DNA of 64,000 nucleotides, from the IMG/VR virus record IMGVR_UViG_3300019458_000002, positions 1-64,000 of that record. One strand, given 5' to 3'. Below, piece after piece: positions 36,633 to 57,487 of this stretch. This DNA is from a virus. The position numbers and the translations under genes were made by a program. The notes beneath the pieces were generated by a model. The model saw only the letters and a program-made list of their open reading frames with translations, did not search any database and was not told the DNA's origin. Position 1 is the first letter of the stretch; each line of letters begins with the position of its first letter.

Positions 36633-37612
36633 TAAGCGGTCTCTATAATGGAGCCATTCCAAGGCAGGACCATGTTGCAGGAACTGCCCTTCAACATGAC
36701 AAACTGTCTAGTGGCATTATTAGGAAATGTCGTTACATCACCCAAAGTCTGAGAAGTTACCCACGCATCTACAAAGCTACCAAAACGCCCATGCTCAGAG
36801 TTGCCGCCACCAGCTAGAATTTGAAATCCAACTGGAGACAATATATACGAATTGTCTAGTGTGCTTAATTGTCCACCTGTATCAGTATAAAGAAGTGGGC
36901 CACCAAAAATTCGGGCTTCCGTAGTGCATGCCCCATTTTGACGGAGATTGCTTACATGCGCATAGACTTCACTGCTAGATATCAAGTTTCCTAGTCCTGC
37001 ATCATAACGAACAGCAGCAATATGCGGATTTGTCCAACCACCTGTAGGCAAGAGTGGGAGCATGATGGCTCCACCGTGCTCAGCAACATCGGCCTGATAG
37101 TATTGCCAATACGTTGCTGAACCATCAGTTGCTTGCCAAACATGAAGACGATGCTGAACAGCTATTGTCGAGAACCAGTTAAAGCATTGATTTGGGAAAG
37201 CCTGATGTATTGCTCCTAATGCAAATTCATCTGTAGCTGTTGGACGTGTAGAGGCGGTTCCTCCCGAAAAGCCCGTATAAGAGGCCAGGATATAAGCTCG
37301 CGTATCTAGGGCTGTGGTATTGTCCATACCAATAACAATTTCAAAGGCTGCAGCAATTCCTGTTTGTCGTAGCTGAATCCAAGAACCTGACCCACCTGAA
37401 CCTGGAACAAGGTCGGCTATCGTTGACCAGGTATCACCGCCTGAAGCGGTAGTATTGCCTGAATCCTGGACCGTCCAAGGAGAAAGAGCAAAGCCCTTTA
37501 AACTGTTTTTTAGAGCTAAAATAGCTCCACGAGTTAAGATGCTTGCGTCAACGCCGGTAATAGTTTGATTTACGTCAAATTGCCAGGTTTTGGCCAATGT
37601 AGGTAGTGCCAT
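36632..37612 (-). CDS. Structural-region protein (beta-rich, lectin-like composition)
   Basis: 326 aa. AAGGAAA lies before the ATG, preceded by an AACAATC motif. Confidence 0.55.
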   Translation of the reverse strand: MALPTLAKTWQFDVNQTITGVDASILTRGAILALKNSLKGFALSPWTVQDSGNTTASGGDTWSTIADLVPGSGGSGSWIQLRQTGIAAAFEIVIGMDNTTALDTRAYILASYTGFSGGTASTRPTATDEFALGAIHQAFPNQCFNWFSTIAVQHRLHVWQATDGSATYWQYYQADVAEHGGAIMLPLLPTGGWTNPHIAAVRYDAGLGNLISSSEVYAHVSNLRQNGACTTEARIFGGPLLYTDTGGQLSTLDNSYILSPVGFQILAGGGNSEHGRFGSFVDAWVTSQTLGDVTTFPNNATRQFVMLKGSSCNMVLPWNGSIIETA

Positions 37613-37637
37613 TATGTTTCCTTATTTCCTAAACTGA

Positions 37638-37648
37638 AGATTGTTACT
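37638..37648 (-). promoter_or_regulatory. AACAATC motif (candidate late-promoter element)
   Basis: Plus strand AGATTGTTACT, 26-36 nt upstream of the start at 37612. Confidence 0.3.
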
Positions 37649-37655
37649 TAGACCT

Positions 37656-38015
37656 TTATTCTTCGATTTCTTCTACATACACTGGAGGTAAAACACCTAC
37701 AGTAACCAAATACTCTTCAGCGACTGTGTCCGAGGGCTCTGAGCCAGTGCCCAAAGTTGTTTGTGCGCTATCGAAGTAAGTTAGGTTTTCCGTGTCATAA
37801 GCTTCTACTACGGCAGCATCAGGAGTACGCCCTTGAGCATAGTCTTCCTTAATTCGGAGCGCCTTTGACACTCCGTTTCTAAGTTCGACGTAGTCGGTGC
37901 CTTCCCAATGCGTGTTTTCATTTACGATGTAAACGTGGAAAACGACGATTTCTTGGGTTTCGTCATAAACCCGACGAGTAACTTGCAATTTATGATTGGC
38001 TGTGATTTGGTACAT
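37656..38015 (-). CDS. Hypothetical structural-region protein
   Basis: 119 aa, downstream of the three fibre paralogs. Confidence 0.55.
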   Translation of the reverse strand: MYQITANHKLQVTRRVYDETQEIVVFHVYIVNENTHWEGTDYVELRNGVSKALRIKEDYAQGRTPDAAVVEAYDTENLTYFDSAQTTLGTGSEPSDTVAEEYLVTVGVLPPVYVEEIEE

Positions 38016-38024
38016 GTGATTTCC

Positions 38025-40259
38025 TTATGGAAGATTGTCAGCGGGAACAGAGAGCATTTCTGGTTCAAAGCTCGTTAAAATGTAATTGACTCCACCTGTT
38101 GTTCTCCAGGTCATTGCGTGACCTAACCTTCGCTTTTGGTTTGTTCCAGACAAAGTTGGAACTGCAACCTGAGCATTTCCAGGTGTAGAAGTCGATAGGT
38201 AAACTATGTCTCCTGTGGCAGCAGGTAAGTCGTCACTTCTAACCCATTGAACACCCTCTGTCTGGCCTCTGAATCCAGCACTTAATTCACCATTAACTGT
38301 TCCGTCATCGCATCGGCTAGTAGCCAAAACCAAAGTTCCCGATGCATTTGCAGCAGTAGAAGCATCAGCCAAAGCACAATCAACAATGCGCGGTTGAAAG
38401 GCTCCAGTTCCAGTAGCCCTTGCTATCTGAAATCTCTCTATGAAGGGCGCAGTTGTGTCATTAAAGTAAATGTTTGGTGTAGGAATCGCTACTACATATG
38501 TGGAAGAAGTATTGAAGTTTTCTTCAGCTGTTGGATAAAATACGTTATTTGCTTCATCACGAATTTCTCCATAAAGAGAATCAAAGGTATTCCACGATGG
38601 GGTCGCTGAACCGTTATTATCAACAACTACCCCCCCGCCTCCAACAAAACTAGTGCTATCTCCCCTGAGATATGTGCTAGGTGGACCAAAGGCAGAAAGA
38701 TTAACTATATTGTTCCTTCCCACTATATAAAATCCGGTTTGTGAAAAAGACCTAGTATCATGAAAATTATGGAGCAAAAATTTACCGTTGTCACAGTATG
38801 CCCTAATCGCTTCGGAGTTGCCTCCATCCATAAAAGAGTCATTTAGCTCTATGGAGATTGGGATTCTTGCTGTAAATCCCAAGTCAACGCTAATTTGATT
38901 TCGGAATCTAGAGTTGCTTACGGTTAAAAACAGAGGTCTTTTAATTGTAAAGAATGAAATGGTACTTAAAATGGAATCTAAAAACGTAATATTTCTAACG
39001 TCTTCAAGCACAGTATGCTGCGCAGAAACGAAGGATGTTGCTGTAAAATTTTCTAAGTCAGTAAGAAGGAGGCTTCCTCCTAGGTTTTTGTATCCTATAC
39101 CAATAGAACGAGCAACGGGTGATGTATCTATGGTTATCCAAGTAGGAGAAACTTGTAGTGCCGCGCATCTCTGCCATCGAGGGCTTCTGCCCTGACATCC
39201 CACAATAGAAGTAACCTGTCCTACTCCCAAAAAGTTGAATAGCTGGGTTCCAGATGCAGTTACCCTTATTCCACCAACCTGACCTAAATTTAATGGATTG
39301 GCTGCCTCATTAATAGAGGTAGATACGACTACGTTGCTAAATCCAACACCAGGCTCCTCTATGTACCAGAAGTCATTTGTAGGGTCCACAATAGATGGAC
39401 CAGGTACAATTGTGCTAGTTGTTAGTTTTTGTGGAAGAAACACAGTATTTCTATTTGCAACAGTTGTGTTTGCAATATCCCCTCTCCAACGCCATCCAAA
39501 GGATGTAGTTTCAGTAGGAATTGCTGCCGCTGAGCCGTCTGCTTTTACGACCTTCCAAATAGTTACAGTCCCACCACAAGCTGACATGTCGGGAAAGGCT
39601 GTACCATCAGAACTTGTGTTAGTCCCGTCTAACTCAAAGTGAGTTGAGTCTATTACAGTGATAGTCCAAGTGGTGTTGATGTAGCAAAACAGACCTAAGG
39701 CATCTAATGCCCCCGATATTTGAACTGCCTGACCAGAAGTAAACGTTACAGTTCCATCATGCTCAACTTCTACGGGTGCCGCATTTGTAGCGCCTACAAT
39801 GGTTGCGGTCTCTTTAGTGATTCTATAGCCAGCTGTATTTGTACCAGTTGAACGCCTAAACCCCATCATAATGTGGTCATTAGCATCACCAGCAAATGCT
39901 ACGGAGCTAGCTGTAGTGTCTGTGACAGTACCTCTGATACCCCAGCGGGAATATCCAGAAAAGTCCGTGTAATCAAGGACGGCATCAGCTGTATTTGCTG
40001 CATTTCTATATGCTACACCACCAGCGCGTTGCTTAATGGCTACCTCAAACATGCGGCCATTACCTTCTTTGGGCAATATATCTAATAGACCTTCCCAAGT
40101 TTTCTTTGCTACGGCTCCCGCAGTAGCTAGGTCTACGTCAGAGTAACCTAGGTTTGCATCGTTACCGCTGTCATAATCGACAGCAAATCTACGAACGGTA
40201 GTTGTGGGCCAATTTGCTCCACGAACCTTATTTATTTCTAGTCTAGTTAGCTCGGCCAT
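38025..40259 (-). CDS. Receptor-binding tail fibre/spike, paralog A
   Basis: 744 aa. N-terminal RRFAVDYDSGNDANLGYSDVDLATAGAVAKKTWEGLLDILP. C-terminal GDIVYLSTSTPGNAQ...SGTNQKRRLG. Confidence 0.65.
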   Translation of the reverse strand: MAELTRLEINKVRGANWPTTTVRRFAVDYDSGNDANLGYSDVDLATAGAVAKKTWEGLLDILPKEGNGRMFEVAIKQRAGGVAYRNAANTADAVLDYTDFSGYSRWGIRGTVTDTTASSVAFAGDANDHIMMGFRRSTGTNTAGYRITKETATIVGATNAAPVEVEHDGTVTFTSGQAVQISGALDALGLFCYINTTWTITVIDSTHFELDGTNTSSDGTAFPDMSACGGTVTIWKVVKADGSAAAIPTETTSFGWRWRGDIANTTVANRNTVFLPQKLTTSTIVPGPSIVDPTNDFWYIEEPGVGFSNVVVSTSINEAANPLNLGQVGGIRVTASGTQLFNFLGVGQVTSIVGCQGRSPRWQRCAALQVSPTWITIDTSPVARSIGIGYKNLGGSLLLTDLENFTATSFVSAQHTVLEDVRNITFLDSILSTISFFTIKRPLFLTVSNSRFRNQISVDLGFTARIPISIELNDSFMDGGNSEAIRAYCDNGKFLLHNFHDTRSFSQTGFYIVGRNNIVNLSAFGPPSTYLRGDSTSFVGGGGVVVDNNGSATPSWNTFDSLYGEIRDEANNVFYPTAEENFNTSSTYVVAIPTPNIYFNDTTAPFIERFQIARATGTGAFQPRIVDCALADASTAANASGTLVLATSRCDDGTVNGELSAGFRGQTEGVQWVRSDDLPAATGDIVYLSTSTPGNAQVAVPTLSGTNQKRRLGHAMTWRTTGGVNYILTSFEPEMLSVPADNLP

Positions 40260-40261
40260 GG

Positions 40262-42484
40262 TTATGGATTCCCGTCTGCATCAGCGGATAGTATTTCTGG
40301 AGCCCAACGTAAGAGCACCATGTTTGAACCTGTTGTTGTATCGACTCGTATTGCCTGACCTAACCTTCGCTTTTGATTCGTTCCTGAAACCACAGGAATT
40401 GTCTTTTGAGCATTGCCTGCAGTTGCGGTAGATAAATACATCATATCGCCAATTACAGGGACATCGTCTGAAATTACCCAGACGTAGCCTGAACCAACGG
40501 CTACTATGTAACCCAAGGCTGTCGTAGAGGCGTGGCTCATCGCTACCATTAGGTTTCCCAATGCATTAGCAACTGTATCTGCTCTTGCAAGCCCTACGTC
40601 TTCAACAATACCAGTTCCTGTGGCCTTTACGATTGAGTAGCGAGGCACAGCTGCTACGCCATTATTTCTGAACAAGGCAGGGCCATCTGTAGTAACTCCT
40701 TGGCTTATTCTGGGGGTGCTTAGGGTATTTGTATCAGAAGTCAGTATAGAAACTCGATTGCCATTTAGGTCACGAGCATCAGCAAGGAACAAATCTACAG
40801 AACGAAATCCAATGGTTAGGGCTCCAGAATTCCCCATAGCAATTTGGCCAGGTGTACCTAAGCTACCTAAATTAGTTCCTCCACGGAAGTAGACGCCACG
40901 CTTACCGAAATTAAGTACGTTGTCATTACCAGTAATTCGAATGCCCGCTCGTGTAGTAGAGGCTTCTGTTGTAGAAGGCCTTTGGTCGTTGATTTTGTTG
41001 AAGAACCAAGCTTGGTTTCTTCCGTTGATAATTATGGCAGGAACTGGTCCTTCAAACTGACAAACATCAAGAGCGCCATTAGATGCACTCACATTGATTG
41101 TGCGCGTAAACCTACACTTTGAAAAGATAGAGTTGGAGTCACCGCAGTTAACAAGGGAAAGGAGTGCGTGTTCTGTGCTGCATACAGCTGGAGAAAAGGC
41201 ATATGTGTCACACTGTACAAAGTCGCACTCTTCTCCGAAAACAACACCCTGTAAGTTCAATAGGCGCACACGATTAGCTGACAAGAAACCGCCACTAAGA
41301 AATCCACCAACCGAAATATTCACCCCTGGCTTATTTCTCCACGTCTGGGACGCATTTGCCGAAAATATGTTCGCAAATGCTGTACCCCCACCAGTATCTC
41401 TACATCCAATTAATGAGACTGAGCCCAATACACCATTTGCCTCAATGCTAGATGCGCTAATGCCACCCATTTGTATGCCAGTAAGCACACCTAAGCCTGC
41501 ACCAGTTACGCTATTGCCCAGCTGAACGGAGCCAAATAGAACGCCTGGTTCCTCTAGGTACCAGATGTCTCCAGCTGCAGAAATAAACACACCTCCATCA
41601 GGAACTGGGACAAGGGTATCTACGCCATTAGCGTATAGTGAAGATGTCTTGTTTCTGTTTGCAACCGTAACCGTGGCTACATCTCCACGAATACGCCACC
41701 CCAGAGAAGTGAATGATTCAGATGGTAACGTGGCAGGGCTTGAATCTGCATTCGTAACCTTATATCTTGTTATAGTTCCACCGCATGCAGTCAAAGAGGG
41801 GAATGTAATTGCGTCTGAATTGGTCAGAGAAATATGTGTGCCATCAACTGCAGCTAAAACTGTCCAGACGTTAGCATTGATGTAGGCATTAGCATCCCCA
41901 GCTGTAGAGGCTGCATCCTTTGCTCCTGATATAACAATTCTTTCACCAGCTACGAACGTAAGAACTCCGTCATGTTCAACAACAACAGGAGTTGCGTTAG
42001 TCGCACCAACAATGGCAGCAGTTGCCTTCGTAATTTTGTAGCCAGCTACATTTGAGCCTGTGCCAGGCTGATGGCCCATGCAAATCTCGTCATTTACATC
42101 GCCAGCAAAGGCCACAGACCCCGCCGAAGCAACAGTCTTTGTGCCTCTGATGAGGATACGAACATAGTTATTAAAACCACGAATATCAAGCATTGCGTCT
42201 TCTGTATCAGCAGCGTTACGGTACACAGCACCAGCTGCGCGAGCTTTGACAATAATCTCAACCTGACGTCCTGCACCCGCTTGCGGCAAAATTGCCTGTA
42301 AACCCTCCCAGGTTTTCTTAGCAACCGCTCCAGCAGTAGGCACATCAACATCTGAGTAACCTAGGTTGGTATCGCTACCTGCATCGTAGTCAACAGCGTA
42401 ATAACGAAAATCGGCAACTGGCCAGGAAGCGCTTTGAACTGCGCCCTGTATCTTTGCTTTTTGAGCTTGAGTAATCTCAGCCAT
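40262..42484 (-). CDS. Receptor-binding tail fibre/spike, paralog B
   Basis: 740 aa. N-terminal RYYAVDYDAGSDTNLGYSDVDVPTAGAVAKKTWEGLQAILP. C-terminal GDMMYLSTATAGNAQ...SGTNQKRRLG. Confidence 0.65.
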   Translation of the reverse strand: MAEITQAQKAKIQGAVQSASWPVADFRYYAVDYDAGSDTNLGYSDVDVPTAGAVAKKTWEGLQAILPQAGAGRQVEIIVKARAAGAVYRNAADTEDAMLDIRGFNNYVRILIRGTKTVASAGSVAFAGDVNDEICMGHQPGTGSNVAGYKITKATAAIVGATNATPVVVEHDGVLTFVAGERIVISGAKDAASTAGDANAYINANVWTVLAAVDGTHISLTNSDAITFPSLTACGGTITRYKVTNADSSPATLPSESFTSLGWRIRGDVATVTVANRNKTSSLYANGVDTLVPVPDGGVFISAAGDIWYLEEPGVLFGSVQLGNSVTGAGLGVLTGIQMGGISASSIEANGVLGSVSLIGCRDTGGGTAFANIFSANASQTWRNKPGVNISVGGFLSGGFLSANRVRLLNLQGVVFGEECDFVQCDTYAFSPAVCSTEHALLSLVNCGDSNSIFSKCRFTRTINVSASNGALDVCQFEGPVPAIIINGRNQAWFFNKINDQRPSTTEASTTRAGIRITGNDNVLNFGKRGVYFRGGTNLGSLGTPGQIAMGNSGALTIGFRSVDLFLADARDLNGNRVSILTSDTNTLSTPRISQGVTTDGPALFRNNGVAAVPRYSIVKATGTGIVEDVGLARADTVANALGNLMVAMSHASTTALGYIVAVGSGYVWVISDDVPVIGDMMYLSTATAGNAQKTIPVVSGTNQKRRLGQAIRVDTTTGSNMVLLRWAPEILSADADGNP

Positions 42485-44952
42485 TATGGTTCTCCGTCCG
42501 CATCTACTGGAATTAGCTCCATCTGAGAAAGATTGATAAGGGCATAGTCTCTTCCCTGGTGACTTACGACCTTTTGAGCGAACCCAAGTCTAAGCTTTTG
42601 ATTGGTTCCTGATAATGTAGGAATCGTATTCATTGCCTGACCAGCATTGACTGTAGACAAATACATCATGTCGCCCTTTGTAGCTAAGGTATCGGTCACA
42701 ATCCAGCATGCTCCAGACCCTACAGCTGGAATTAAGTCTCCATTTATTTGAGTTGTAAGACAAACTCCTACAATTCCAGCGGCATTTGCATAGCTATCTG
42801 CTTGAGCAGGAATTGTCATGTTATTGTCGTCAATGGGAAAGCCAGTAATAGTTGTGGATAGCCTTATTAAGGAAAACAGCAATGGAACCGTAATAGTAGA
42901 ATCATTTCTATAGAAAGATGGGGTTTCCAAAGAAACTCCCCATAGATTTTCTGAAAGAAAAAATCCGGTACTCGCAATTTCAGAGCCTGTACTTGTTTGA
43001 TAAATTAGCAAACCATTTGGGTCTCTAAATGCAGCTAAATCAAAGTCAGTAGAATAGTGTTGATATCCCGTGCTTCCGTCGATTACAGTTCCAGAATTTT
43101 TTTGTTCAATCCAAATTTCTGCATCGGCACCGCCATTAGGTGCCTGAAATTCGACTGTCTTATTTCTGAAGTTAATGACTCCAGCCCCACCTCTTTGAAT
43201 TCTTAATCCAACTAGGGGGCTGTTTCTTTGGTCTCCAATCATTTCTAACATCATGGTGCTACCTAAGCCCGCAATGGTTATTGCCGACCTAAAGCTTCCA
43301 CCATTTTCAAACTGTACATTGGCCACGTATCCATGACTAGTTGTCCAAATGACAGAATCAGATGTATTAGCTCTAACGATTCTTATTGGTTTTCTCGTTG
43401 CAGTATCTGGAGATGACCCAATATTTGGAGATTTCGTTTGTTGAGCAGCTAATCCCTCGGATGTTCCTGCAGTTCCACAGCTGTTAATATTTAATCCAGC
43501 ACCAATGTAGCCAGGGCCAATAATTGCGTAGCTTATAAGTCTATTTAAAGCTACTAATCCCCCGGTATTGTAAAAGCTGCTTAAACTAGTAAATAAACAA
43601 TCTGAAACAGTTGTCCCGCTGCTAGACCTAAAACCTATACCTGTTGTTCTAGAGACTCCAGAAATACCCTGATATGAATTTAAAGCTCTTATAGACCCTA
43701 TGTGGTTTATGGTAAATGAAGTGCCTTCACAAAAAGAAAAGAACAATCCTATTGGAGCATCTGTAGCAGTAACAGCCCCTAAAGAGCGAATGCCCGCAAT
43801 TATTAGTGAATTATTATTTGTGTTATGTAGAGTGGATGCCTCTCCTGTACCTACGGTAACGCTGGTAAAGGCAACTCCTGGTTCCTCTATATACCAGATA
43901 TCAGCGGGGTCAATAGCTGCTGGGTCCAAATCCAAAACTATGGTATTTGTACTATTGGCCAAAATGGTTCTAGTAAGGTTCCTGTTTGCAACAGTTGTAG
44001 TTGCTGAATCACCTCGTACACGCTTTCCCAATAATGCTACTTCTGCAGTCAATACTGGAGCAGAATCATCAGCTTTAACAACTTTTATTCTTTCTATATT
44101 ACCGCCCACTGTCCAGGGTCTAAAGGTAGCTGCATTGGACCTTGTTAATGTAAAATGAGTAGCATCATTTATAGATTGAATAGTCCATACTTGCCTAATA
44201 TGAGATAGACCACCATCAAACCCATCTTCGGTACCTGAAATAAATATTTTTTCACCAGCCACAAATGTCTGAGAGCCATCATGCTCTATTTCTACTGGAT
44301 TCGTATTTGTCGCTCCTAAGACCGGAGTAGAGATTTTGGTAAATTTATAACCAGCAGTATTTGTACCGGCAGCTACTATGCCTCCTGCTGCTATTTCATC
44401 ATTAGCATCACCCGCAAATGCAGTGCAGCTTGCTGTAGCAATGGTATCGGTTCCTCGAATTATGTGTCTTGCATATCCAAAGCGCCCAGTGATATCTAGA
44501 GATTCTCCGTAGCTTGCACCAGCCGCTCGTGTTCTAACTGCCACTTCAAACTGTTTATTGTTACCAAAGGTTGGAAGAATGGCTAGAAAGCCCAACCAAG
44601 TCTTTTTCGCTACGGCTCCAGCTAAAGCAAGAGAAGTGTCAGAAAATCCTGCATTTGCATCATTTCCATTGTCAAAGTCTACAGCAAAGAATCGCGTAGT
44701 TGCCCAGGTTGCTACCGATGAGCCCCCGCCTCCCGTAAACTCAGTCCAAGTATTTGGAAGTGCAGTCAGTTGCCAAAGCTTGTTGTCAGTCTGTGTGACC
44801 GCGAACATGCCAACCTTTTTACGGGATGTAATAATGGCATCGCGTGCAGTTACGTCAGCAACTACATGTAGGCCGCCCTTATTGTCCGTATCCTCTGTAA
44901 AAGGAAAGGGTCCACCTGGTCTGAATGTTCCACCGACGAAAATATCAGCCAT
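42484..44952 (-). CDS. Receptor-binding tail fibre/spike, paralog C (extra N-terminal extension of about 85 aa)
   Basis: 822 aa. RFFAVDFDNGNDANAGFSDTSLALAGAVAKKTWLGFLAILP. C-terminal GDMMYLSTVNAGQAM...SGTNQKLRLG. Confidence 0.65.
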   Translation of the reverse strand: MADIFVGGTFRPGGPFPFTEDTDNKGGLHVVADVTARDAIITSRKKVGMFAVTQTDNKLWQLTALPNTWTEFTGGGGSSVATWATTRFFAVDFDNGNDANAGFSDTSLALAGAVAKKTWLGFLAILPTFGNNKQFEVAVRTRAAGASYGESLDITGRFGYARHIIRGTDTIATASCTAFAGDANDEIAAGGIVAAGTNTAGYKFTKISTPVLGATNTNPVEIEHDGSQTFVAGEKIFISGTEDGFDGGLSHIRQVWTIQSINDATHFTLTRSNAATFRPWTVGGNIERIKVVKADDSAPVLTAEVALLGKRVRGDSATTTVANRNLTRTILANSTNTIVLDLDPAAIDPADIWYIEEPGVAFTSVTVGTGEASTLHNTNNNSLIIAGIRSLGAVTATDAPIGLFFSFCEGTSFTINHIGSIRALNSYQGISGVSRTTGIGFRSSSGTTVSDCLFTSLSSFYNTGGLVALNRLISYAIIGPGYIGAGLNINSCGTAGTSEGLAAQQTKSPNIGSSPDTATRKPIRIVRANTSDSVIWTTSHGYVANVQFENGGSFRSAITIAGLGSTMMLEMIGDQRNSPLVGLRIQRGGAGVINFRNKTVEFQAPNGGADAEIWIEQKNSGTVIDGSTGYQHYSTDFDLAAFRDPNGLLIYQTSTGSEIASTGFFLSENLWGVSLETPSFYRNDSTITVPLLFSLIRLSTTITGFPIDDNNMTIPAQADSYANAAGIVGVCLTTQINGDLIPAVGSGACWIVTDTLATKGDMMYLSTVNAGQAMNTIPTLSGTNQKLRLGFAQKVVSHQGRDYALINLSQMELIPVDADGEP

Positions 44953-45929
44953 TAGGTCACTGTCAGCGTGAACGCCGCCGTAATAAAGTTGTCAGACTCA
45001 AGCACTGTGTAACCTCCTGCTACAAGCACCGCAAACGCATTTGTAACTGCTACTCCCGTCGCGACTGCAGTCATAGGGAAATCGAAGCCGTTCTGGTCCT
45101 TAATGCTGGCAGGGGAACCAAAGGCAGTCGGATAGCAAATATAGATTTTGGTAGTGGGTGTACCAGCCGCAAATACATAGACTCCACCTCTTCCAGACTG
45201 AAGACGACTTGAAACTAGGCCTTCAATGAAGGCTTCATCGTATGCACCTGGAACAGTTGTGATTCCGTAGAAAACTCGTGGCTGCCATTGGTCAACTATT
45301 GCAGCAGTTTTAATTGGTCCAGAAGGAGACTTCTTGGCACTCAATGTATGTGTAACAGTTCCATTAATTGTGGAGCTAACATATGAACGGGCAGGAAGGC
45401 CTGAACCATTGAAGTTGTTGTAGCCAAAGGAAGTGCTGGCGGCAAGATTGATTGGGTCAGTATTGGTTCCGTCCAATAGATTGAGCGGAGTAGTTAAGGT
45501 TGCGTTATAGCTGGCTGTATATCGTGGGTCTACAATAGAGTCCCCAAGCTCCTTAGGAGAAGAGTAACCGCTACGTGCAAAAGATGTGATTGCAAAGGCA
45601 GGGTCAATGTCGTCCTGAGTTAATCTGCGATTTACCAAGCTACCTAGTCCTGTGTCTACAGGAACTGCACCGTCTGTTGCAGTAAGCATGGGCACAACAC
45701 CAGAATTAGCATTAGAGGCTGGGTCTGCATCTATTGAAACTATTCCAATGCCAGTTGGAGGGCTGACGGTCGTATTAGTTCCATCAATTACCTGGTCTAC
45801 TGCTCCTCCACCACCTCCACCTGTAGAGTTAACCTCCACCTCACCACGCCCAGTAGCGGGGTTCAGAATAATATTTAGGCCCGCAAGTAGTCTTGTGACG
45901 CCCTTGCGGAAGAAGCTACTGGTAATCAT
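44952..45929 (-). CDS. Fibre-like structural protein
   Basis: 325 aa. Poly-Gly (STGGGGGGAV), Thr/Ser/Asn-rich. TAATG-type overlap with paralog C. Confidence 0.55.
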   Translation of the reverse strand: MITSSFFRKGVTRLLAGLNIILNPATGRGEVEVNSTGGGGGGAVDQVIDGTNTTVSPPTGIGIVSIDADPASNANSGVVPMLTATDGAVPVDTGLGSLVNRRLTQDDIDPAFAITSFARSGYSSPKELGDSIVDPRYTASYNATLTTPLNLLDGTNTDPINLAASTSFGYNNFNGSGLPARSYVSSTINGTVTHTLSAKKSPSGPIKTAAIVDQWQPRVFYGITTVPGAYDEAFIEGLVSSRLQSGRGGVYVFAAGTPTTKIYICYPTAFGSPASIKDQNGFDFPMTAVATGVAVTNAFAVLVAGGYTVLESDNFITAAFTLTVT

Positions 45930-45976
45930 ATCTCTACACCAAGATTGGTGTTGTTGCCGATACGAATCTTCTGAAT

Positions 45977-46282
45977 ATGGAACCAGAAGAACAGATACTC
46001 TTCATCAAGAAAGTCTTCGGATGTATGCTTAATGACAATGCAAACAAGCTGAAGAATGGGTTGGCTAGACGCGAGGAAATTAGGAAGAAGCTTGAGGCTG
46101 GAGAATCAGTCGTCAATTATCGCACTGCCTGGATAAGAGACAGCGCAAGTAAAATTATTGACGTATTGAAGCAGTCTGCGATTGAATTCAATGCCAAACA
46201 CGAGGATGACAAGGTTAGCGCCCTAGACCTTGTTGACGTAGTGGCTACAGTCAATGGCCTATTAAAAGGCACAATAAAATAA
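45977..46282 (+). CDS. Hypothetical protein encoded opposite to the late block
   Basis: The 101-aa ORF exactly fills the 354-nt gap between two leftward structural genes. No clear promoter or SD site seen. Confidence 0.4.
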   Translation: MEPEEQILFIKKVFGCMLNDNANKLKNGLARREEIRKKLEAGESVVNYRTAWIRDSASKIIDVLKQSAIEFNAKHEDDKVSALDLVDVVATVNGLLKGTIK

Positions 46283-46283
46283 A

Positions 46284-47132
46284 TTACCCGATTATCGCGT
46301 CAATTTTATCCATTAGACGCGGTGCAATTTTTTCTTCAATCTGTTCTTGAGCCCATTTAACAGAATCTGCAAGGATATTCGTACCTTCGATGCCGGGATG
46401 CTGCCAGCGGTCTTGTCCCCGGTGCTTAGAAGAGGCAATTCTGAAGGTCATGATTGACTTTTGAACTTTCCCGCCCTTCTCTTTCTGATATACACCTACA
46501 CCCTGTAGAAATGGCGTGCCGCCACCTCCTGGGCCTCCACCAGCTGCCTGGCGTGCATTAGGCCCCTGTCGGACATCTCCAATGGGTCCTCTGCCCTGGC
46601 CAGGGCCATGATGGGACTTGATGGGCGCATTCATTACATCGAAGCTATGGAGCTTGCCTAGCTTGGGTTTGCCGTTTTCATCCTTCTCAATTTTTGCCCA
46701 AGGTATATTCTTTTTCTTCATCTCGGTTTTGAGAGTAGAGATGAGGTCTTGTTGGGCCTGAGTCGTGCTTCCTTTGCCCTTGCCTGGTCCATGATGGAAG
46801 GGTATGGTTACATAGGTTGAGCCATCGGCAGCTGTCTTGGCTTTTGGTGAGGAAAGTAGGTCGTCGAGCATGTTGTGCTCAGGCATACCATCTTCTATCC
46901 AGCCTACTGATGCATCTAAGTGCAATACCCAGACTCCATCTTCCTCATAAGTAGACAGGCCATCAATAAACATTTGCCGCCTAGAATGTAGGCGTTCGCT
47001 GGCAAGCTCTACGGCTTTGCCATAGGTCATTTGAGCTAGGTCTCTGTTTACTTGCTTAGCAGCATCATTCAGAGTCTTCTCAAGCTCCTTCAGAAAGTTC
47101 AGGTCTGAAGTATCGACATTAACTAGGAACAC
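46284..47132 (-). CDS. Virion-morphogenesis-region protein
   Basis: 282 aa. Gly-rich central part (HHGPGKGKG, HHGPGQGRGP, GGGPGGGG). Confidence 0.55.
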   Translation of the reverse strand: MFLVNVDTSDLNFLKELEKTLNDAAKQVNRDLAQMTYGKAVELASERLHSRRQMFIDGLSTYEEDGVWVLHLDASVGWIEDGMPEHNMLDDLLSSPKAKTAADGSTYVTIPFHHGPGKGKGSTTQAQQDLISTLKTEMKKKNIPWAKIEKDENGKPKLGKLHSFDVMNAPIKSHHGPGQGRGPIGDVRQGPNARQAAGGGPGGGGTPFLQGVGVYQKEKGGKVQKSIMTFRIASSKHRGQDRWQHPGIEGTNILADSVKWAQEQIEEKIAPRLMDKIDAIIG

Positions 47133-47735
47133 TTATTTCATGCCGAACTTTACTTCGGTCATCTTTTTGTGATGGTCATCGACATAGTTTGCGCCATTAA
47201 GGGCTACGTGGCTGAATTCATGCTCAATCAGAGCTTCTACACGCGACCACGGGTCTGATTTGCGCCAAGTCACTGTCACCATTTGTCCCTGTGTAAGACC
47301 AACGGCTTTCTGGGTAGACCAGCCTGTAGTTGAGGGAGCCTGATATTCTACGAATTCTGCATCGACAAAGGTTAGCGAGCTTCCTTCAAAATACTTCTTA
47401 ATGTCATCTGCTTTATCTGGAAACTTAGCAATCCAAAATCCCCTAGTTCTAGCAATTGCATCGCAGATGTCACCATTGTGTTCGCCATGACCTCCGTCCA
47501 TAACCATGACGCCTTCAATGGTTGTAAAGGAAATCTTGCTGGCCCACTTCCATCGTAGATAAAATAGGATTCCAGCAATAGCGGCCATGCAAAGAGGAAC
47601 TACCACAAGTAATGCAGATGCAATAAATGGAAGTGCTGCATTGAAAGTAAAGGCCTTGATAGAAGCTAGAGTTGTAGCCAATACCATGCCCCCGTAAATT
47701 GCTAATCTATCCCATGTAAATACTTTGAATCTCAT
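47133..47735 (-). CDS. Membrane-anchored HExxH metallopeptidase-like protein
   Basis: 200 aa with three N-terminal hydrophobic segments. Motif LIEHEFSHVAL. Resembles 17722..18183. Confidence 0.55.
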   Translation of the reverse strand: MRFKVFTWDRLAIYGGMVLATTLASIKAFTFNAALPFIASALLVVVPLCMAAIAGILFYLRWKWASKISFTTIEGVMVMDGGHGEHNGDICDAIARTRGFWIAKFPDKADDIKKYFEGSSLTFVDAEFVEYQAPSTTGWSTQKAVGLTQGQMVTVTWRKSDPWSRVEALIEHEFSHVALNGANYVDDHHKKMTEVKFGMK

Positions 47736-48397
47736 TATCGTGCCTCCTCGTCTATGTACCTAAAAGTATGGCCCTTGCACCTTCGCAACAGACCCCATAA
47801 AACCTTGCTAAGGTGTGAAGAGTCTACACCCAATTTTTCTTGAGCTTCCCCTAGGCACCCATAAACATGCCCAGATTCATCTACAAACGGTCTCCCTCCC
47901 ATAATTGCAGACCGTTCCCTTCTGGATTCGGGTTTTCTTATGGATTTTTTGAATTTTTCTTTTTGTGCTTCAGAAGCAACAAATCCTCTATGGGACTTGG
48001 AGGACTTCAATTTGGATTCTTCTGTCCAAATTCGTCCTTTATTAGCAGCACCTATTTTTGCCTTACCTGATTCGGTATGTTTATATCCAAGCATTCCTTC
48101 ACCGCCGTTCGTTCCATTTGTAATTCTATGTCCCAGAATTTTATATAGACGTATATAGTAAATCTCAGCTTCATTTAAAGAATTTTCTTCTTCAAATCCA
48201 TTTTCAATAACCTCAATCGCTGGAGACAATCCCAAACTCTTAAGTTTCTTAATCCAGTTATTTTTGAGTGTATTGGGCTTAAGATTAGAATTTTGAAGGT
48301 GTTTTAATAGCCTGTTTTTGGGCGTTAATACCATGCTTTTGCCAACATATTTTATATGAGCATTTCTTGGGTCAACTAAACAATAAACAAATCCCAT
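47735..48397 (-). CDS. GIY-YIG homing endonuclease (free-standing)
   Basis: 220 aa. GFVYCLVD...IKYVGKS, and NUMOD-like GYKHTESGKAKIGAANKGR / SKSHRGFVASEAQKEK. Confidence 0.7.
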   Translation of the reverse strand: MGFVYCLVDPRNAHIKYVGKSMVLTPKNRLLKHLQNSNLKPNTLKNNWIKKLKSLGLSPAIEVIENGFEEENSLNEAEIYYIRLYKILGHRITNGTNGGEGMLGYKHTESGKAKIGAANKGRIWTEESKLKSSKSHRGFVASEAQKEKFKKSIRKPESRRERSAIMGGRPFVDESGHVYGCLGEAQEKLGVDSSHLSKVLWGLLRRCKGHTFRYIDEEAR

Positions 48398-50644
48398 TTA
48401 CCTGGCCCCTGGCTCTCTTGAGGATGTTGCGTGTATGGCAGGGTCTTGGCTCAAGATTTTACCGGCTCTCATTTGCTTAAATGACGAACTACCATCAATA
48501 TGCGCAACTTTAATTTTCCCATTTAATTCTGTTCCTACTGGCAGATTGAGGTTGCGGTGTGCAGACTTTGTTTCTTTTTCTAGTACTCCAGGAGGCTTGG
48601 CATCAGGATTTTCTGATGGGTCTAGCTCTGAATGACCCTCCATCTCAGCCTTGAGCGTGTATCTGTACGCACCAAAGGCCTCATCAAATGAACGTGGGTC
48701 ATTATCGTCATCAAGGCCTCCTCCTGGAGCAGGCTCCTGAGCTTCAGCCACGTATTCCATGCCATGCTTAGCCGCAAGCTTTGAATGAACTTTGTGGGCT
48801 AGTGTTGAATGGTCATCTCCCTGGACCTCGTTAGCATGATGCTTATTCTTGGCATGAGCCATGAGAGCTTCATATGCAGCTAACCCAAGGCCCTTGCCTC
48901 TGTGTTCAGGGTCTAATTGAGAAAAAGTTGTATGTAAGTACTTGCCATCGTTGTCGCTATGGACTCTACCCGATACATAACCAATATCATTGTCTTGAGA
49001 TGGCTTCTCTCCATTTGGAGTATGGTGGAGTCTGGCTCGTAAAATATTGGTTGCACCCATATGGGTGTCATGAAGTACCATTTTGTATTTTTTCTTATCA
49101 GGAAGAACGTGGGAATAGTCGTACATTGCCTTTGGGTTTCCGCCAGCAGAACGAGCACCAGATACCTTCAAACCAATTGGAATATCCTTGAGCGCCATCT
49201 TCACAAGCTCAGACTTCAACTGGTAGTTATAGGGACTGTAAGCACTATCAAAATCCTTCTGAGGCCCAAAATGCTCTCGTGCAGCCTGATACTGCATACC
49301 GTGTTTTTGTGCAAGTTTCTCATGGACGGCATGTGCAGCAGTCGAATGTCTACCGCCTTCAACCGTAGTAGCTTCTAAGAAATTTTTACCATGAGCAAAC
49401 AATGCCTCATACATGGCTGTACCAAGACCCTTACCTCGGTACTCTGGGTCCATCTCACTCATACCAGGGCTAATACTACGATTTTCCTTGCGGTAGTCTC
49501 CTGAAATATGGCCTACTTCAGCTTTACCATGATGAACTGTTGCAAATACATGTCCTCCAAAATCATTGGTAACATCGTCGTGCGCAATATAGACTTTGTA
49601 GCCCTTGTTCTTCAGTTCCTTAGGAAGCACATGAGAATAATCAAAGTGCTCTGTTCCTTCTGGAGAACGCACACGCTTTCCAATAGGTATATCACTTACA
49701 GCCATCTTCTCAAATGGCTCTTCGGACTTACTGACTTTTGGGTTTGTGTCTTCGCTGCCTCCATCATTCCCAGGCACACGGGCTGTGCTAGCCGATAATT
49801 CACGGGCCATAGCAATGACACCTTGTACAAGCCGCATAATGGAACCATAGGTATCTGGGGCAGTCTGTTTAATTTGAGCTAATATGGGGGCTTGCTGCTT
49901 TACGGATTGTAGAATTTGGGCTACTTGGTTGCGAAGGTCATCATGGTTTTTAGCTTTGTTACTTTGCTCATCCATGTCCTGCTTACCTTGAGCCTGAGCA
50001 AGCTTATGAAAGTGCTTCTCAGCATCAGCTTCAGCGTGAGTCATCTCAGGTTGTGGAGGAGGCCGGTTTTCATCAATCATCTGATACAGGCTCTGGGCCT
50101 CAGAATGTTCACCGCTCATCTTGGGCTGTTGCTTACTGGGCTCTGAACGATATGCGCCCTTACCTAAATACTCGGACACAATTTTCTTCTGACTGGGTTC
50201 AGGGTTCTGCTTAGCAGACTCAATTTCTTTGTCAAATTCAGGGGACCAGAAAATAATGCGGTCTTTACCACGAAGCTTAGCAACAAGCAAGGCTTTTGCG
50301 CTTTCAGACAATTTTAGGCCCACACCTACAGAAACTGTAGCGCCTACAGCCGTTGCATACTGCTCTCTGAACTTAGGAATTTGGTCAATTGCGGAAGCAG
50401 GTATTTCTAGCCGCACCTCATCACCACCGGCCTCGATGACCGACCCCCCACAATTCTCTGCAAAGCTCTTCCAGATTTCATTTCCTCGGTTTATGTCCTG
50501 GTTAATCTTACGGATTTTCTCTACATCGTCTTCCAAAGTAGCTAGTCCTACTACTCTTCCAATGTCATCACCATCGATTGAGACAAACAAATTCATAGCT
50601 CTAAGATTGTGTTGACCGCCTGTAGGTTTTTTTGCTATATTCAC
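48398..50644 (-). CDS. Multidomain protein: N-terminal mCpol/GGDEF-like palm domain + two GNAT acetyltransferase-like domains
   Basis: 748 aa. FVSIDGDDIGRVV ... GGSVIEAGGDEVRLEI ... VSVGVGL ... AKLRGKDRI, then a duplicated module with YRGKGLGTAMYEAL and HRGKGLGLAAYEAL. Confidence 0.55.
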   Translation of the reverse strand: MNIAKKPTGGQHNLRAMNLFVSIDGDDIGRVVGLATLEDDVEKIRKINQDINRGNEIWKSFAENCGGSVIEAGGDEVRLEIPASAIDQIPKFREQYATAVGATVSVGVGLKLSESAKALLVAKLRGKDRIIFWSPEFDKEIESAKQNPEPSQKKIVSEYLGKGAYRSEPSKQQPKMSGEHSEAQSLYQMIDENRPPPQPEMTHAEADAEKHFHKLAQAQGKQDMDEQSNKAKNHDDLRNQVAQILQSVKQQAPILAQIKQTAPDTYGSIMRLVQGVIAMARELSASTARVPGNDGGSEDTNPKVSKSEEPFEKMAVSDIPIGKRVRSPEGTEHFDYSHVLPKELKNKGYKVYIAHDDVTNDFGGHVFATVHHGKAEVGHISGDYRKENRSISPGMSEMDPEYRGKGLGTAMYEALFAHGKNFLEATTVEGGRHSTAAHAVHEKLAQKHGMQYQAAREHFGPQKDFDSAYSPYNYQLKSELVKMALKDIPIGLKVSGARSAGGNPKAMYDYSHVLPDKKKYKMVLHDTHMGATNILRARLHHTPNGEKPSQDNDIGYVSGRVHSDNDGKYLHTTFSQLDPEHRGKGLGLAAYEALMAHAKNKHHANEVQGDDHSTLAHKVHSKLAAKHGMEYVAEAQEPAPGGGLDDDNDPRSFDEAFGAYRYTLKAEMEGHSELDPSENPDAKPPGVLEKETKSAHRNLNLPVGTELNGKIKVAHIDGSSSFKQMRAGKILSQDPAIHATSSREPGAR

Positions 50645-51871: not shown

Positions 51872-52015
51872 GATATTGCCAAGCAAGCCCAGAAGTGGAA
51901 GGCAAAGCCCAGTCGAAGTCATAACGACGGTTATGTTCGCGTCAACCTGCGACAGATTGGGGTAAAGGGACAGGTATCCTAGGGCACCAGGGATATTGCT
52001 GGGTAGGTGTCATTT

Positions 52016-52102
52016 TCCCTGGTCATCTAGCGGAACAAGACCAAGTTCGGATACTAAATCCGTTTCCTTGGAACGTTGGTTCGAATCCAACCTAGGGAGC
52101 CA
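52016..52102 (+). tRNA. tRNA-scaffold gene (87 nt, CCA encoded) with an extended or interrupted anticodon arm; anticodon unresolved
   Basis: TCCCTGG-TCA-TCT-AGCGGAACA-AGA-CCAAG-TT-CGGAT-ACTAA-ATCCG-TTTC-CTTGG-AAC-GTTGG-TTCGAAT-CCAAC-CTAGGGA-G-CCA. Confidence 0.55.
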
Positions 52103-52103
52103 A

Positions 52104-52487
52104 ATGAAACCATTCCAACACTGCAAAAACAGTGCCCGTAAGTACGGAGGAGTTGCTGAGGACTACATTCCTGTCCACAACTTCTTTGACGAGACGAAAG
52201 CCCATATGCCTGATGTAAGGCATCGCACAATTCTGCACAACAGCTATGGAATCTGGCTAGCTGAACGTCTATTTGGAACCACAATAACCAATAGCGAAGG
52301 CAAGAAGGTTTCTGTAAGGGATTTGGGTGAGGACCATGTAATAGAAGACCTTGGATTTATACCAACTCTTCAAGATGTCTTGAAAGATTTACCAATCAAT
52401 GATATAGTAGGAGCAAGGCTTCGTAAACGAACGAAGTATGATTTGCAGGGCAACAAAGTAGAAACTAAAGAACTGGAGGATGATTAG
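52104..52487 (+). CDS. Hypothetical protein
   Basis: I prefer ATG 52104 (MKPFQHCKNS...), directly after the tRNA. The track ORF start at 51996 runs through the tRNA. Confidence 0.6.
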   Translation: MKPFQHCKNSARKYGGVAEDYIPVHNFFDETKAHMPDVRHRTILHNSYGIWLAERLFGTTITNSEGKKVSVRDLGEDHVIEDLGFIPTLQDVLKDLPINDIVGARLRKRTKYDLQGNKVETKELEDD

Positions 52488-55591: not shown

Positions 55592-56093
55592 CCAAGAAGA
55601 ATGGCCTAAGGCTGCACTTAGCGTAGATATTGTTTGTTTGAAGCTTACAGCTGGTCCAGGCTCACAACCCGAGGTTCTACTAGTAAAAAGGCGGAATAAG
55701 CCATATAAAAACATGTGGGCACTGCCTGGTGGATTCGTGGACATTGCAACAGGCGAAACAACAGAGCATGCCGCCGTCAGAGAGTTAGGTGAGGAAACTG
55801 GGGTTTGGGGAATTCATGAATCTGAAATGAAGCTCTTTGGAGTTTACTCTGAACTCAATAGAGACCCTAGGCATCGCACAATTTCAGTTGGTTATTATTT
55901 GACTGTATCAAGCGCCCTTGGTATCGTGGCTGGTGATGATGCAGCGGAGGCAAGCTTCTTCCCTTTATCTTTACCCACGATAAGGAAAGCTATGCCTCTA
56001 GCCTTTGACCATAACAAGATTTTAAATGATGCAGTTCAGACGCGGCTATATATGAATTGTAACGGTGTCTGGCAAATGAAGGAGCTACCATGA
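55584..56093 (+). CDS. Nudix hydrolase (ADP-ribose pyrophosphatase-like)
   Basis: I prefer ATG 55584 (MTDQEEWPK...). Nudix box GGFVDIATGETTEHAAVRELGEETGV. Confidence 0.75.
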   Translation: MTDQEEWPKAALSVDIVCLKLTAGPGSQPEVLLVKRRNKPYKNMWALPGGFVDIATGETTEHAAVRELGEETGVWGIHESEMKLFGVYSELNRDPRHRTISVGYYLTVSSALGIVAGDDAAEASFFPLSLPTIRKAMPLAFDHNKILNDAVQTRLYMNCNGVWQMKELP

Positions 56094-57487
56094 AGGACAA
56101 TCTGATTATTGACACAGATAGCTATAAGGCAGGACACTTCCTACAGTGGCCGCCTGGCACAACTAAAGCTGTTGCGTATCTGGAAGCCAGGGCTGGCTCC
56201 ATGTACGACTACACGCTGTTTGGGGGCCTCCAGATTCTGCTTATGAGAGACCTGGCTGGTGCCGTAGTCACTGAAGCTGATGTTGATGAAGCCCGCCTGT
56301 TCTTTGAACAGCATGGCGAGCCATTCCCGAGGGATGGCTGGATGAAGATTGTAGACAAGTGCGGGGGCCGTCTGCCTGTTCGAATTCGCGCGGTTCCTGA
56401 AGGAACTGTAGTGCCCATTAACAATGTGCTAATGACTGTGGAGTCACTAGACCCTGAACTGTACTGGCTGCCTGGTTGGCTTGAGACCAAGCTTATGCGC
56501 CTTTGGTATCCTATCACGGTTGCAACCCGTAGCTTTGCCTGCAAAAAGGTCATCAAGTCTTTCTTGGATAAGACCGCCGATAACACTGACGCGGAAATTA
56601 ATTTTAAGCTCCATGACTTTGGTGGAAGAGGAGTGTCCAGCCGAGAAAGTGCTGGCTATGGGGGCTGCGCACATCTTTTCAACTTCATGGGTAGCGATAC
56701 CTGTGAAGGAGTTCACTATGCCAACACCTACTACAACAACCACAAGATGTCAGGCTATTCCATTCCCGCAATGGAACACTCCACAGTTATCTCCTGGGGT
56801 CCAGAGCATGAAAGAGATGCATTCGAGAACATGGTTCGTACATCGAAGGGCCATAACCTGATTGCTTGCGTATCCGACAGCTACGACATCTATAATGCGG
56901 TAGCCAATATCTGGGGAGACCCCAATATGGTTGAGTTTTTGAAACTCCATAAGAAGACTGTGGTCATTCGTCCAGACAGTGGAGACCCACAGGTTGTCAA
57001 CTTTAATATTCTAAGGATTCTGGAAGAGAAGGTTGGTATGACCCTTAACACAAAGGGCTACAAGGTTCTGCCTGATTGCTACCGCCTGATTCAGGGCGAT
57101 GGTAATAACACAGAAAAGGACATTGCAGATGTTCTAGGCTATCTCGAAAGGGCTGGATACAGCGCTTCCAATATTGCCTTTGGCATGGGTGGAGGACTTC
57201 TGCAGAAGCTTGATAGGGACACACAGCGCTTTGCCTTCAAGACCAGTCAACTGGTTGTGGACGAAGAACGCAGGGATGTCTGTAAGACACCCGCTACCGA
57301 CCCTTCCAAGGCCAGCAAGAAAGGCTACCTGGATTTGGTAAAGATGGATGGACAGTATTACACTGTCAAGGTGCTTGAGAACAAGCCCCACAATGAATCT
57401 CAACTTGTGACAGTCTTTGAAAACGGCAAAATCATGAAGGAGTACAGCCTTGAAGAAGTCCGTAAAACAGCTGCCTCCAGTCTGTAG
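56090..57487 (+). CDS. nadV: Nicotinamide phosphoribosyltransferase (Nampt)
   Basis: 465 aa. NLIIDTDSYKAGHF at the N-terminus, with length and layout typical of NadV. ATGA overlap with the Nudix gene. Confidence 0.85.
   Translation: MKDNLIIDTDSYKAGHFLQWPPGTTKAVAYLEARAGSMYDYTLFGGLQILLMRDLAGAVVTEADVDEARLFFEQHGEPFPRDGWMKIVDKCGGRLPVRIRAVPEGTVVPINNVLMTVESLDPELYWLPGWLETKLMRLWYPITVATRSFACKKVIKSFLDKTADNTDAEINFKLHDFGGRGVSSRESAGYGGCAHLFNFMGSDTCEGVHYANTYYNNHKMSGYSIPAMEHSTVISWGPEHERDAFENMVRTSKGHNLIACVSDSYDIYNAVANIWGDPNMVEFLKLHKKTVVIRPDSGDPQVVNFNILRILEEKVGMTLNTKGYKVLPDCYRLIQGDGNNTEKDIADVLGYLERAGYSASNIAFGMGGGLLQKLDRDTQRFAFKTSQLVVDEERRDVCKTPATDPSKASKKGYLDLVKMDGQYYTVKVLENKPHNESQLVTVFENGKIMKEYSLEEVRKTAASSL

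Follow-up and report, generated by a model that had tools for sequence, protein, structure and literature searches.

A late-block gene of an uncultured phage joins an mCpol palm domain to two GNAT domains and a conserved C-terminal tail

Minimal CRISPR polymerase (mCpol) proteins have so far been known only as the signal synthases of the bacterial Panoptes guard systems, which were described in two Nature papers of 2025 and a PLoS Biology paper of 2026, and in these papers phages are cast solely as destroyers or sequesterers of cyclic nucleotides. The polyvalent proteins of phages (Iyer, Burroughs, Anand, de Souza, and Aravind, 2017, PMC5512222) are typically encoded beside the late virion genes; GNAT, ParB, and kinase domains are among their typical domains, and the published list of their domains includes GGDEF and RelA/SpoT and has 0 occurrences of mCpol. 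We analyzed a 64,000-nucleotide stretch of viral DNA (positions 1 to 64,000 of the IMG/VR virus record IMGVR_UViG_3300019458_000002, hereafter called the window) whose late block opens with a gene for a single protein made up of an mCpol palm domain, a helical module, two GNAT acetyltransferase domains, and a conserved tail. The explanation that we favor, with a probability of roughly 45%, is that this protein is a late-made, probably virion-associated effector or carrier of the polyvalent type with an mCpol warhead. A phage mCpol or mCpol-GNAT fusion is not mentioned in the Panoptes/mCpol papers, the polyvalent-protein paper, or a jumbo-phage survey, a scope that leaves aside the mCpol-defining paper of Burroughs et al. 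2015. Within that literature, the novelty of the mCpol and GNAT combination claimed by a prediction made earlier from the sequence of the window (the original prediction) is thus borne out.

The maximal open reading frame (ORF) at this position in the ORF list extends from 48398 to 50644 on the minus strand and encodes 748 amino acids (aa) from a GTG at 50644. The original prediction had taken the gene to be this 748-aa ORF, which is indeed present in the list, but the start is likelier to be the ATG at 50596 (residue 17), giving a protein of 732 aa. This ATG is probably the true start because homologues begin there, with query residue 17 corresponding to the beginning of most full-length homologues, because the heptamer CAATCTT lies 6 nt upstream of it, and because a divergent neighbor gene on the plus strand starts at approximately 50648. 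Residues are numbered here from the 748-aa ORF unless M17 numbering is stated. The gene and its parts are the following.

48398-50596, minus strand: gene for the mCpol-helix-GNAT-GNAT-tail protein, which has 732 aa if translated from the likelier ATG (ORF list, homologue starts)
50240-50596, minus strand: mCpol palm domain, aa 17-135 (Pfam, NCBIfam, PDB sequence match, Foldseek)
49784-50035, minus strand: conserved helical (coiled-coil-like) module, aa ~204-287 (AlphaFold2 helices, module hidden Markov model)
49217-49699, minus strand: GNAT domain 1, aa ~316-476, with a DYSHVLP signature and the acetyl-CoA loop RGKGLGTAMYEAL (Pfam, AlphaFold2, Foldseek)
48647-49135, minus strand: GNAT domain 2, aa ~504-666, a copy of domain 1 with DYSHVLP and the loop RGKGLGLAAYEAL (Pfam, AlphaFold2)
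48401-48553, minus strand: conserved C-terminal tail, aa 698-748 (alignment of 56 tails, exhaustive profile search)
50603-50609, minus strand: CAATCTT 5' element, with GGTCAAC on its upstream side and the ATG 6 nt downstream (conservation across loci)

The motifs on which the original prediction was based (FVSIDGDDIG, GGSVIEAGGDEVRLEI, VSVGVGL, AKLRGKDRI, RGKGLGTAMYEAL, and RGKGLGLAAYEAL) are all found in the translation. An identical protein (P0001) is encoded on a 171,731-bp metagenomic contig, and relatives were found on contigs of ~100 to 176 kb and on IMG/VR viral contigs. A few relatives are present in UniProt/BFVD, where they are labeled only "uncharacterized protein [uncultured Caudovirales phage]," and a nucleotide comparison of 6 kb with 50,697 phage records gave no match.

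Four comparisons agree that the N-terminal domain is an mCpol-type palm, as had been proposed. In a Pfam scan, residues 20 to 132 matched positions 1 to 113 of the 114 positions of the mCpol profile PF18182 (E=3.2e-15, 56.9 bits versus a cut-off of 26.4), and the NCBIfam mCpol model NF033576 gave 45.5 bits versus a cut-off of 40. Panoptes mCpol proteins were the sole significant matches in a sequence search of the PDB (9mnr_A, KpOptS, E=3.5e-5). The palm domain of an AlphaFold2 model built from 31 family sequences had a predicted local distance difference test score (pLDDT) of ~95 and was matched by Foldseek to KpOptS 9mnr_A with a target TM-score of 0.88 and a root-mean-square deviation of 2.2 A over 122 columns, at ~24 to 27% identity. 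In the PDB sequence match, D24 and D75 align with Asp6 and Asp57 of KpOptS, which are its active-site acidic residues, and N52 is the equivalent of its adenine-contacting Asn34 (PMC12657218). The palm residues D24, D26, G73-G74-D75-E76, S105-x-G107-x-G109, K123, and G126 are intact, with the metal-binding Asp and the GGDE loop among them, and the motifs DGDD, GGDE, SVGVG, and KLRG are all kept. Despite the GGDEV loop in the protein, the Pfam scan gave no match to the GGDEF family PF00990 at E<=10, and GGDEF structures were only weaker Foldseek matches (4zve, E=8e-5). The Cas10-Cmr2_palm2 profile scored 18.2 bits in the same scan, under its cut-off of 27, and no HD, D2, or D4 domain was found. 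Judged by profiles, the window protein belongs to the families of mCpol and GNAT domains and is neither a GGDEF nor a Cas10 protein.

The closest solved relative of the palm domain is Panoptes OptS (PF18182; KpOptS, PDB 9mnr/9pd0; type I and type II), which has the same minimal Cas10-like palm fold. Like OptS, the window protein has no sensor domain, and therefore its mCpol activity would plausibly be constitutive. Unlike OptS, a stand-alone protein of ~120 aa, the window mCpol is fused to a helical stalk, two GNAT domains, and a C-terminal tail, and its gene lies in a phage late structural block rather than in a bacterial defense operon. The full GGDE loop that it carries is nearly absent from OptS according to PMC12657218. 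Panoptes systems are bacterial and are typically next to a cyclic-oligonucleotide-based antiphage signaling system (CBASS), whereas this gene was found in the late block of phages on ~170-kb contigs. No S-2TMbeta or CARF-TM effector partner accompanies it: its conserved neighbor is soluble, and a nearby 200-aa ORF with a transmembrane (TM) segment is not conserved. The lack of an effector partner and the non-bacterial origin mean that the window does not encode a Panoptes system here.

The mCpol domain is one of three constant parts, together with the helical module and the tail, that were recognized by comparison with 73 homologues and local mapping, and these parts give the family the frame mCpol-helix-variable insert-tail in at least 376 clusters. 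The region after the palm domain had been described as a Gln/Lys-rich linker, and in part it is linker, but residues ~204 to 287 form a conserved helical module with disordered linkers on both sides. Its AlphaFold2 helices (188-271 in M17 numbering) have pLDDT values of 70 to 84, and the hidden Markov model (HMM) of the module matched 167 family proteins; this module is a probable oligomerization stalk. The tail, of ~50 aa, is conserved and was absent from the earlier description. An alignment of 56 tails gave the pattern of a beta-hairpin, LPxG(S/T)..GK(I/V)KVxHxDG..W..G (AlphaFold2 strands at 694-710), followed by a terminal HP(V/T)SSRxPxx(K/R). An exhaustive HMMER search of 1.84 billion representatives with the tail profile matched 376 representative clusters, and among the best 150 of the 376 the match nearly always reached the C-terminus of the protein. 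The tail is presumed to be an anchoring or partner-binding module; it has no similarity to PDB entries and none to T4 fibritin (hhalign probability <1%). We rejected the idea that it is a freely portable targeting tag on unrelated cargo, as nearly every tail protein also has the mCpol-helix frame; the proteins that appeared to have a tail only, or a GNAT and a tail, were mostly short or started at contig ends.

Between the helix and the tail, the content of the family proteins varies. Among 199 proteins classified by module HMM, 102 were mCpol-helix-tail, 36 had one GNAT, and 14 had two; across the family the GNAT copy number is 0 to 5, with five GNATs in the locus of one viral contig. Other inserts were ParB_N, DUF5661, DUF3293, and YunG, and many inserts had no Pfam match. 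Mean pairwise identity was highest in the tail (50%), followed by mCpol (46%), the GNAT (38%), and the helix (34%). All four acidic catalytic positions were kept in 114 of 142 representative palm domains (80%), the window protein included, and the catalytic residues were gone in the other 28 (20%), for example as KALD/AGSK, with the fold, helix, and tail retained. Catalysis is thus the majority state, and it is under selection. At the same time, its loss in 20% of the relatives makes the underlying role of the family look like that of a carrier or structural protein, and we take the pattern to point to such a role. A similar case is that of MuF proteins, which occur with active or inactive PBECR domains (PMC5512222).

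The C-terminal half had been read as a duplicated module with an acetyl-CoA motif in each copy, and both parts of this reading held, in that the protein carries two tandem GNATs, each with an R-G-K-G-L-G loop. The Pfam scan matched GNAT families in two stretches, with Acetyltransf_1 at E=2.6e-12 (47.5 bits versus a cut-off of 20.7), Acetyltransf_7 in GNAT domain 1 (32.2 bits versus 27), and Acetyltransf_3 in GNAT domain 2 (26.1 bits versus 25.4); the acetyltransferase family PHROG 1249 matches domain 2. The two modules, of ~165 aa each, are 40% identical to one another (E=5e-31), and both domains were modeled with a pLDDT of ~85 to 90, domain 2 at ~90. Foldseek matched the C-terminal half to the tandem-GNAT protein 2wpx (E=1.6e-7), to VipF (~3e-5), and to SpeG, with a probability of 1.00. 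Palm and GNAT matches were therefore both returned by Pfam and by AlphaFold/Foldseek, two of the routes by which the original prediction had proposed to check itself. The acetyl-CoA pyrophosphate-binding loop, with the consensus (Q/R)xxGx(G/A), is intact as RGKGLG in both copies, and its strict form is present in 62 of the 89 family GNAT modules. The subfamily is marked by DYSHxLP and by invariant His residues after the loop. Two consecutive GNAT folds are likewise found in VipF (7wx7/6wqc), a Legionella effector, and in the clavulanate-pathway protein 2wpx; unlike these, to which it is only ~10 to 13% identical, the window GNAT subfamily has its own signature and a plastic copy number.

Only one cultured phage was found to share a part of the protein. 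A protein search of 50,697 phage records gave a GNAT of Myxococcus phage Mx1 as the sole match, which covers the GNAT domains only and belongs to a 1479-aa ART-PolyVal+NUDIX+GNAT protein (35% identity, profile E=4.5e-41). Elsewhere, the GNAT module occurs without mCpol, fused to PI3/4-kinase/HipA, NUDIX, or DUF6496. A role in host take-over has been discussed for phage GNATs such as phiKMV Rac (PMC7824862). A scan of GTDB with the GNAT pattern alone returned 156- to 164-kb contigs (L032, L033, and L034) in metagenome-assembled genomes (MAGs) labeled Candidatus Saccharibacteria and Myxococcales. All three carry a GNAT giant protein, and L032 also carries a helix-tail gene and the partner gene described below; these contigs most likely represent phage genomes that ended up in bacterial MAGs during binning.

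Phage GGDEF cyclases (Mx1 WNM70324.1 and an Acetonema prophage polyvalent protein) are likewise palm-domain cyclases encoded near head genes, and they have been proposed to interfere with host nucleotide signaling (PMC5512222). The Mx1 protein, annotated as a nucleotide cyclase, was considered as an orthologue and rejected, being of the PF00990 type without helix or tail (BLASTP E=0.01, HMM score ~0). It is a stand-alone GGDEF cyclase (383-1114 of L001) encoded three genes upstream of the major capsid gene, and its end, HGLSFHNPLK, is loosely like HP(V/T)SSRNPxxK, a likeness with an HMM score of ~0 and no statistical support.

The gene had been placed at the head of the late block, and a minus-strand block with sheath, tube, and head protease genes as well as a neck-like 339-aa gene does begin with it. 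On its other side, a block of DNA-metabolism genes (DUF6915, deoxynucleoside monophosphate kinase, nicotinamide phosphoribosyltransferase [NAMPT], and DNA ligase) is oriented divergently, and the same junction of late and DNA-metabolism blocks was found in six divergent contigs. The family is a late gene that holds a fixed position in an uncultured clade of ~170-kb myoviruses. The landmarks of the late block, including the conserved partner gene, are the following.

46284-47132, minus strand: partner gene of a ~275-aa family (282 aa here; PHROG 16819, of unknown function there)
26619-29147, minus strand: sheath
26122-26592, minus strand: tube
14645-15427, minus strand: head-maturation protease, further along the block

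The partner is downstream of the mCpol gene on the same strand in all 26 of the 26 loci that carry the frame. In 13 of the 21 loci where tail and partner were both detected, the gap between the two genes is at most 24 nt, and the partner often begins 4 to 14 nt after the stop. At least 370 partner homologues were found, and the best 120 listed are 47 to 85% identical. The AlphaFold2 model of the partner has a pLDDT of 85, and nothing significant was obtained for it in Pfam, PHROG function, NCBIfam, PADLOC, PDB sequence and profile, or Foldseek searches; a weak local fold match was to an SaPI1 neck component (probability 0.77). An analogy with the T4 gene order (wac-13-14-15...18-19) was also tried. 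The gene positions agree, and the analogy was rejected at the level of homology, with hhalign probabilities of <1% for the partner against gp13 and gp14 and for the tail against fibritin.

A further property that the gene shares with other late genes is its 5' element. In ~14 of 21 loci, the orthologous gene has the sequence (G)CAATCTT 6 to 12 nt before its start codon, and GTCAAG often precedes this sequence. Within the window, 6 of the 14 copies of CAATCTT lie 6 to 24 nt upstream of late-block gene starts; besides the copy at the mCpol gene, they are the following.

45941-45947, minus strand: CAATCTT before a late-block gene start
38031-38037, minus strand: CAATCTT before a late-block gene start
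37637-37643, minus strand: CAATCTT before a late-block gene start
35307-35313, minus strand: CAATCTT before a late-block gene start
18192-18198, minus strand: CAATCTT before a late-block gene start

Over 490 kb of the window and its relatives, an ORF start follows 44 of the 104 copies; the corresponding figure was 6.8% with 40 permuted 7-mers and 12.5% with the reverse complement. CAATCTT was also found before a tube gene, neck-like genes, and the gene for a 1507-aa GNAT giant. We regard it as a candidate clade-specific late promoter or transcription-start/5' element.

In the explanation that we favor, the protein would be made together with the virion proteins and carried with the virion or produced late. 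The N-terminal mCpol domain would be a nucleotide cyclase or oligomerase, making a (cyclic) oligonucleotide from nucleoside triphosphates (NTPs). Palm-domain cyclases require two active sites side by side, and the helical stalk would dimerize or oligomerize the palm domains for constitutive NTP cyclization. The region between the helix and the tail would be a disordered, hypervariable cargo slot, filled here with two GNAT acetyltransferases that would acetylate host or defense targets, and the tail would most likely dock on the ~275-aa partner or on the head or neck. The outcome would be subversion of nucleotide-based immunity or host machinery. What was first proposed, that the protein could produce or imitate a nucleotide signal, modify a target by acetylation, or do both, is compatible with the data, and phages may make their own immune-type nucleotides.

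Shared with the polyvalent proteins are the presence of unrelated enzymatic domains in one phage polypeptide, a late virion gene neighborhood, the gain and swapping of domains between orthologues, a GNAT homologous to that of Mx1, and, in relatives, ParB and kinase domains alongside the same modules. Unlike polyvalent proteins, the window family has its own constant frame of mCpol, helix, and tail and a dedicated partner gene. By its domains and gene order, the window protein fits most of the description of a polyvalent protein and lacks the known virion anchors; its packaging is putative.

Several points weigh against this explanation. Neither Pfam nor PHROG gave a MuF, portal fusion, ART, or metallopeptidase domain in the window protein. 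With 20% of the family lacking catalytic residues, catalysis is not what maintains the family. The docking of the tail on the partner is something that we only infer, because both match nothing solved and are not homologous to T4 gp13, gp14, or fibritin. A late gene that heads a neck/tail module could equally encode an external structural protein.

We considered whether the protein might instead act in the cytoplasm. In this alternative, which we judge unlikely, it would be an unpackaged phage signaling enzyme whose mCpol product is sensed by a phage protein, for example the ~275-aa partner, and the signal would time or control lysis, superinfection exclusion, or an assembly switch, with the GNATs as accessory modifiers. 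The absence of a detected virion-anchor domain agrees with this, as does a cyclase that has intact catalytic residues and no sensor domain, and the strict coupling to a single conserved partner is as in synthase-receptor pairs. However, the partner has no CARF, SAVED, or S-2TMbeta fold and no significant fold match, and its conservation (the identities of the listed homologues given above) is like that of a structural protein. It also stays in the 20% of lineages in which the active site of the synthase has been lost, which is not expected of a signaling pair, and the hypervariable cargo slot resembles arms-race effectors more than a regulator.

We give the same low likelihood to a primarily structural or assembly role in the neck or head-completion region, as a collar/whisker-like fibre or head-completion factor, in which the palm and cargo domains would be decorations and any enzymatic activity secondary or vestigial. 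Retention of all palm catalytic residues in 80% of lineages is more than decoration predicts, the acetyl-CoA loops are kept in both GNATs, NTP and acetyl-CoA substrates are not available outside a virion, and there is no homology to T4 fibritin, gp13, or gp14. Set against this are the position of the gene, which is fixed just before the neck-like, sheath, and tube genes in every relative, the helical stalk and terminal beta-hairpin of the AlphaFold2 model, the 28 of 142 representatives that keep fold, helix, and tail without catalytic residues, and the weak local match of the partner to the SaPI1 neck component.

Somewhat more doubtful still is the idea that the protein is an anti-guard weapon, in which the phage would have its own Panoptes-type synthase, either carried in with the virion or produced in large amounts. 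The cell would be flooded with the very decoy cyclic nucleotide (e.g., 2',3'-c-di-AMP or cA3) by which Panoptes-like guard systems of the host hold their membrane effectors silent. If this idea were true, the phage could use sponges or phosphodiesterases directed against CBASS or type III CRISPR while the guard stayed untriggered, further host-specific counter-defenses would come from the swappable cargo (GNATs, ParB_N, and others), and this would be the first virus known to synthesize an immune second messenger that disarms inhibitory (inverse) signaling.

The next alternative involves the DNA between the mCpol gene and its partner, where the window has an insertion that splits the pair and lies outside the conserved system.

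47133-48397, minus strand: insertion of 1.27 kb splitting the mCpol-partner pair
47735-48397, minus strand: GIY-YIG/NUMOD homing endonuclease (Pfam and PHROG matches)
47133-47735, minus strand: ORF of 200 aa, with TM segment(s) at the N-terminus and an HEFSH motif (HExxH, zincin-like) at the C-terminus, from its sequence

The hydrophobic segment(s) of the 200-aa ORF are at aa ~13 to 60, and the ORF overlaps the stop of the endonuclease gene at its own start and runs right up to the beginning of the partner gene. No homologue of it was found in the loci of relatives or in Pfam, PHROGs, NCBIfam, PADLOC, or the PDB. With the closest solved relative of the palm being Panoptes OptS and this TM ORF lying two genes downstream, the locus could be read as a phage-borne, Panoptes-like toxin-antitoxin or defense module in which a nucleotide restrains the TM protein for superinfection exclusion or addiction. 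This reading is highly improbable and is largely refuted because the TM ORF is not conserved: it arrives with the homing endonuclease insertion, it is unlike the S-2TMbeta, Cap15, and CARF-TM effectors and any PADLOC, Pfam, or PDB entry, and the mCpol gene belongs to the core late genes of a structural block rather than to a defense island. That the motifs are due to chance or are degenerate and unrelated to mCpol and GNAT is refuted by profile scores above curated cut-offs and by concordant structural superpositions.

An intact mCpol as a fixed late gene with swapping effector domains suggests that phages also produce such nucleotides. The analysis further defines a modular effector/carrier family (the at least 376 clusters noted above), two uncharacterized modules (the helix and the tail), their partner, and a clade-wide 5' element, all found in a large group of uncultured ~170-kb phages.

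Other features of the locus and the window were also observed. Several relatives have insertions of 0.3 to 3 kb at the mCpol-partner junction, and in another phage a different GIY-YIG endonuclease (27% identity; 6346-7008 of L006) lies directly upstream of the orthologous gene; given the repeated insertions and the two GIY-YIG endonucleases, the locus looks like a homing hotspot. Between the partner and the neck-like 339-aa gene, ~11 kb on the minus strand (35263-46282) is filled with ORFs, among them large ones of 325, 822, 740, 744, and 326 aa, that are essentially without family matches, the 822-aa ORF having one weak PHROG match of unknown function. This stretch is missing at that position in relatives such as L004 and may hold lineage-specific fibre, baseplate, or host-range genes. 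Within a 337-aa ORF at 16702-17715 on the minus strand, a 56-aa segment (nt 17167-17334) is 46% identical to aa 2 to 57 of the Mx1 major capsid protein, with no match to that protein in the remainder; the segment could be a shared propeptide or scaffold-like segment.

On the plus strand of the divergent early block, the DUF6915 protein (PF21866, E=2.7e-40) is encoded at 51996-52487, ~1.4 kb from the mCpol gene. In a bulk scan of the window, no anti-CBASS families of the Acb1, Acb2, or sponge type were present among 25 of the 37 matched PHROG families. The NAMPT gene (PHROG 448, E=8e-144) lies at 56090-57487 on the plus strand, a MutT/NUDIX match was obtained among the window ORFs without its position being localized, and NAMPT is next to NUDIX in relatives; together they resemble an NAD+ salvage module, a type of module that has been associated with counteracting defenses that deplete NAD. 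The ORFs at 7237-8340 and 11136-12281, both on the plus strand, gave matches to an RNA ligase (PHROG 562) and a nucleotidyltransferase (PHROG 388, E=1.4e-61), and another ORF, which was not localized, matched a further RNA-ligase family (PHROG 24030). These matches suggest that the early region holds an RNA or tRNA repair module.

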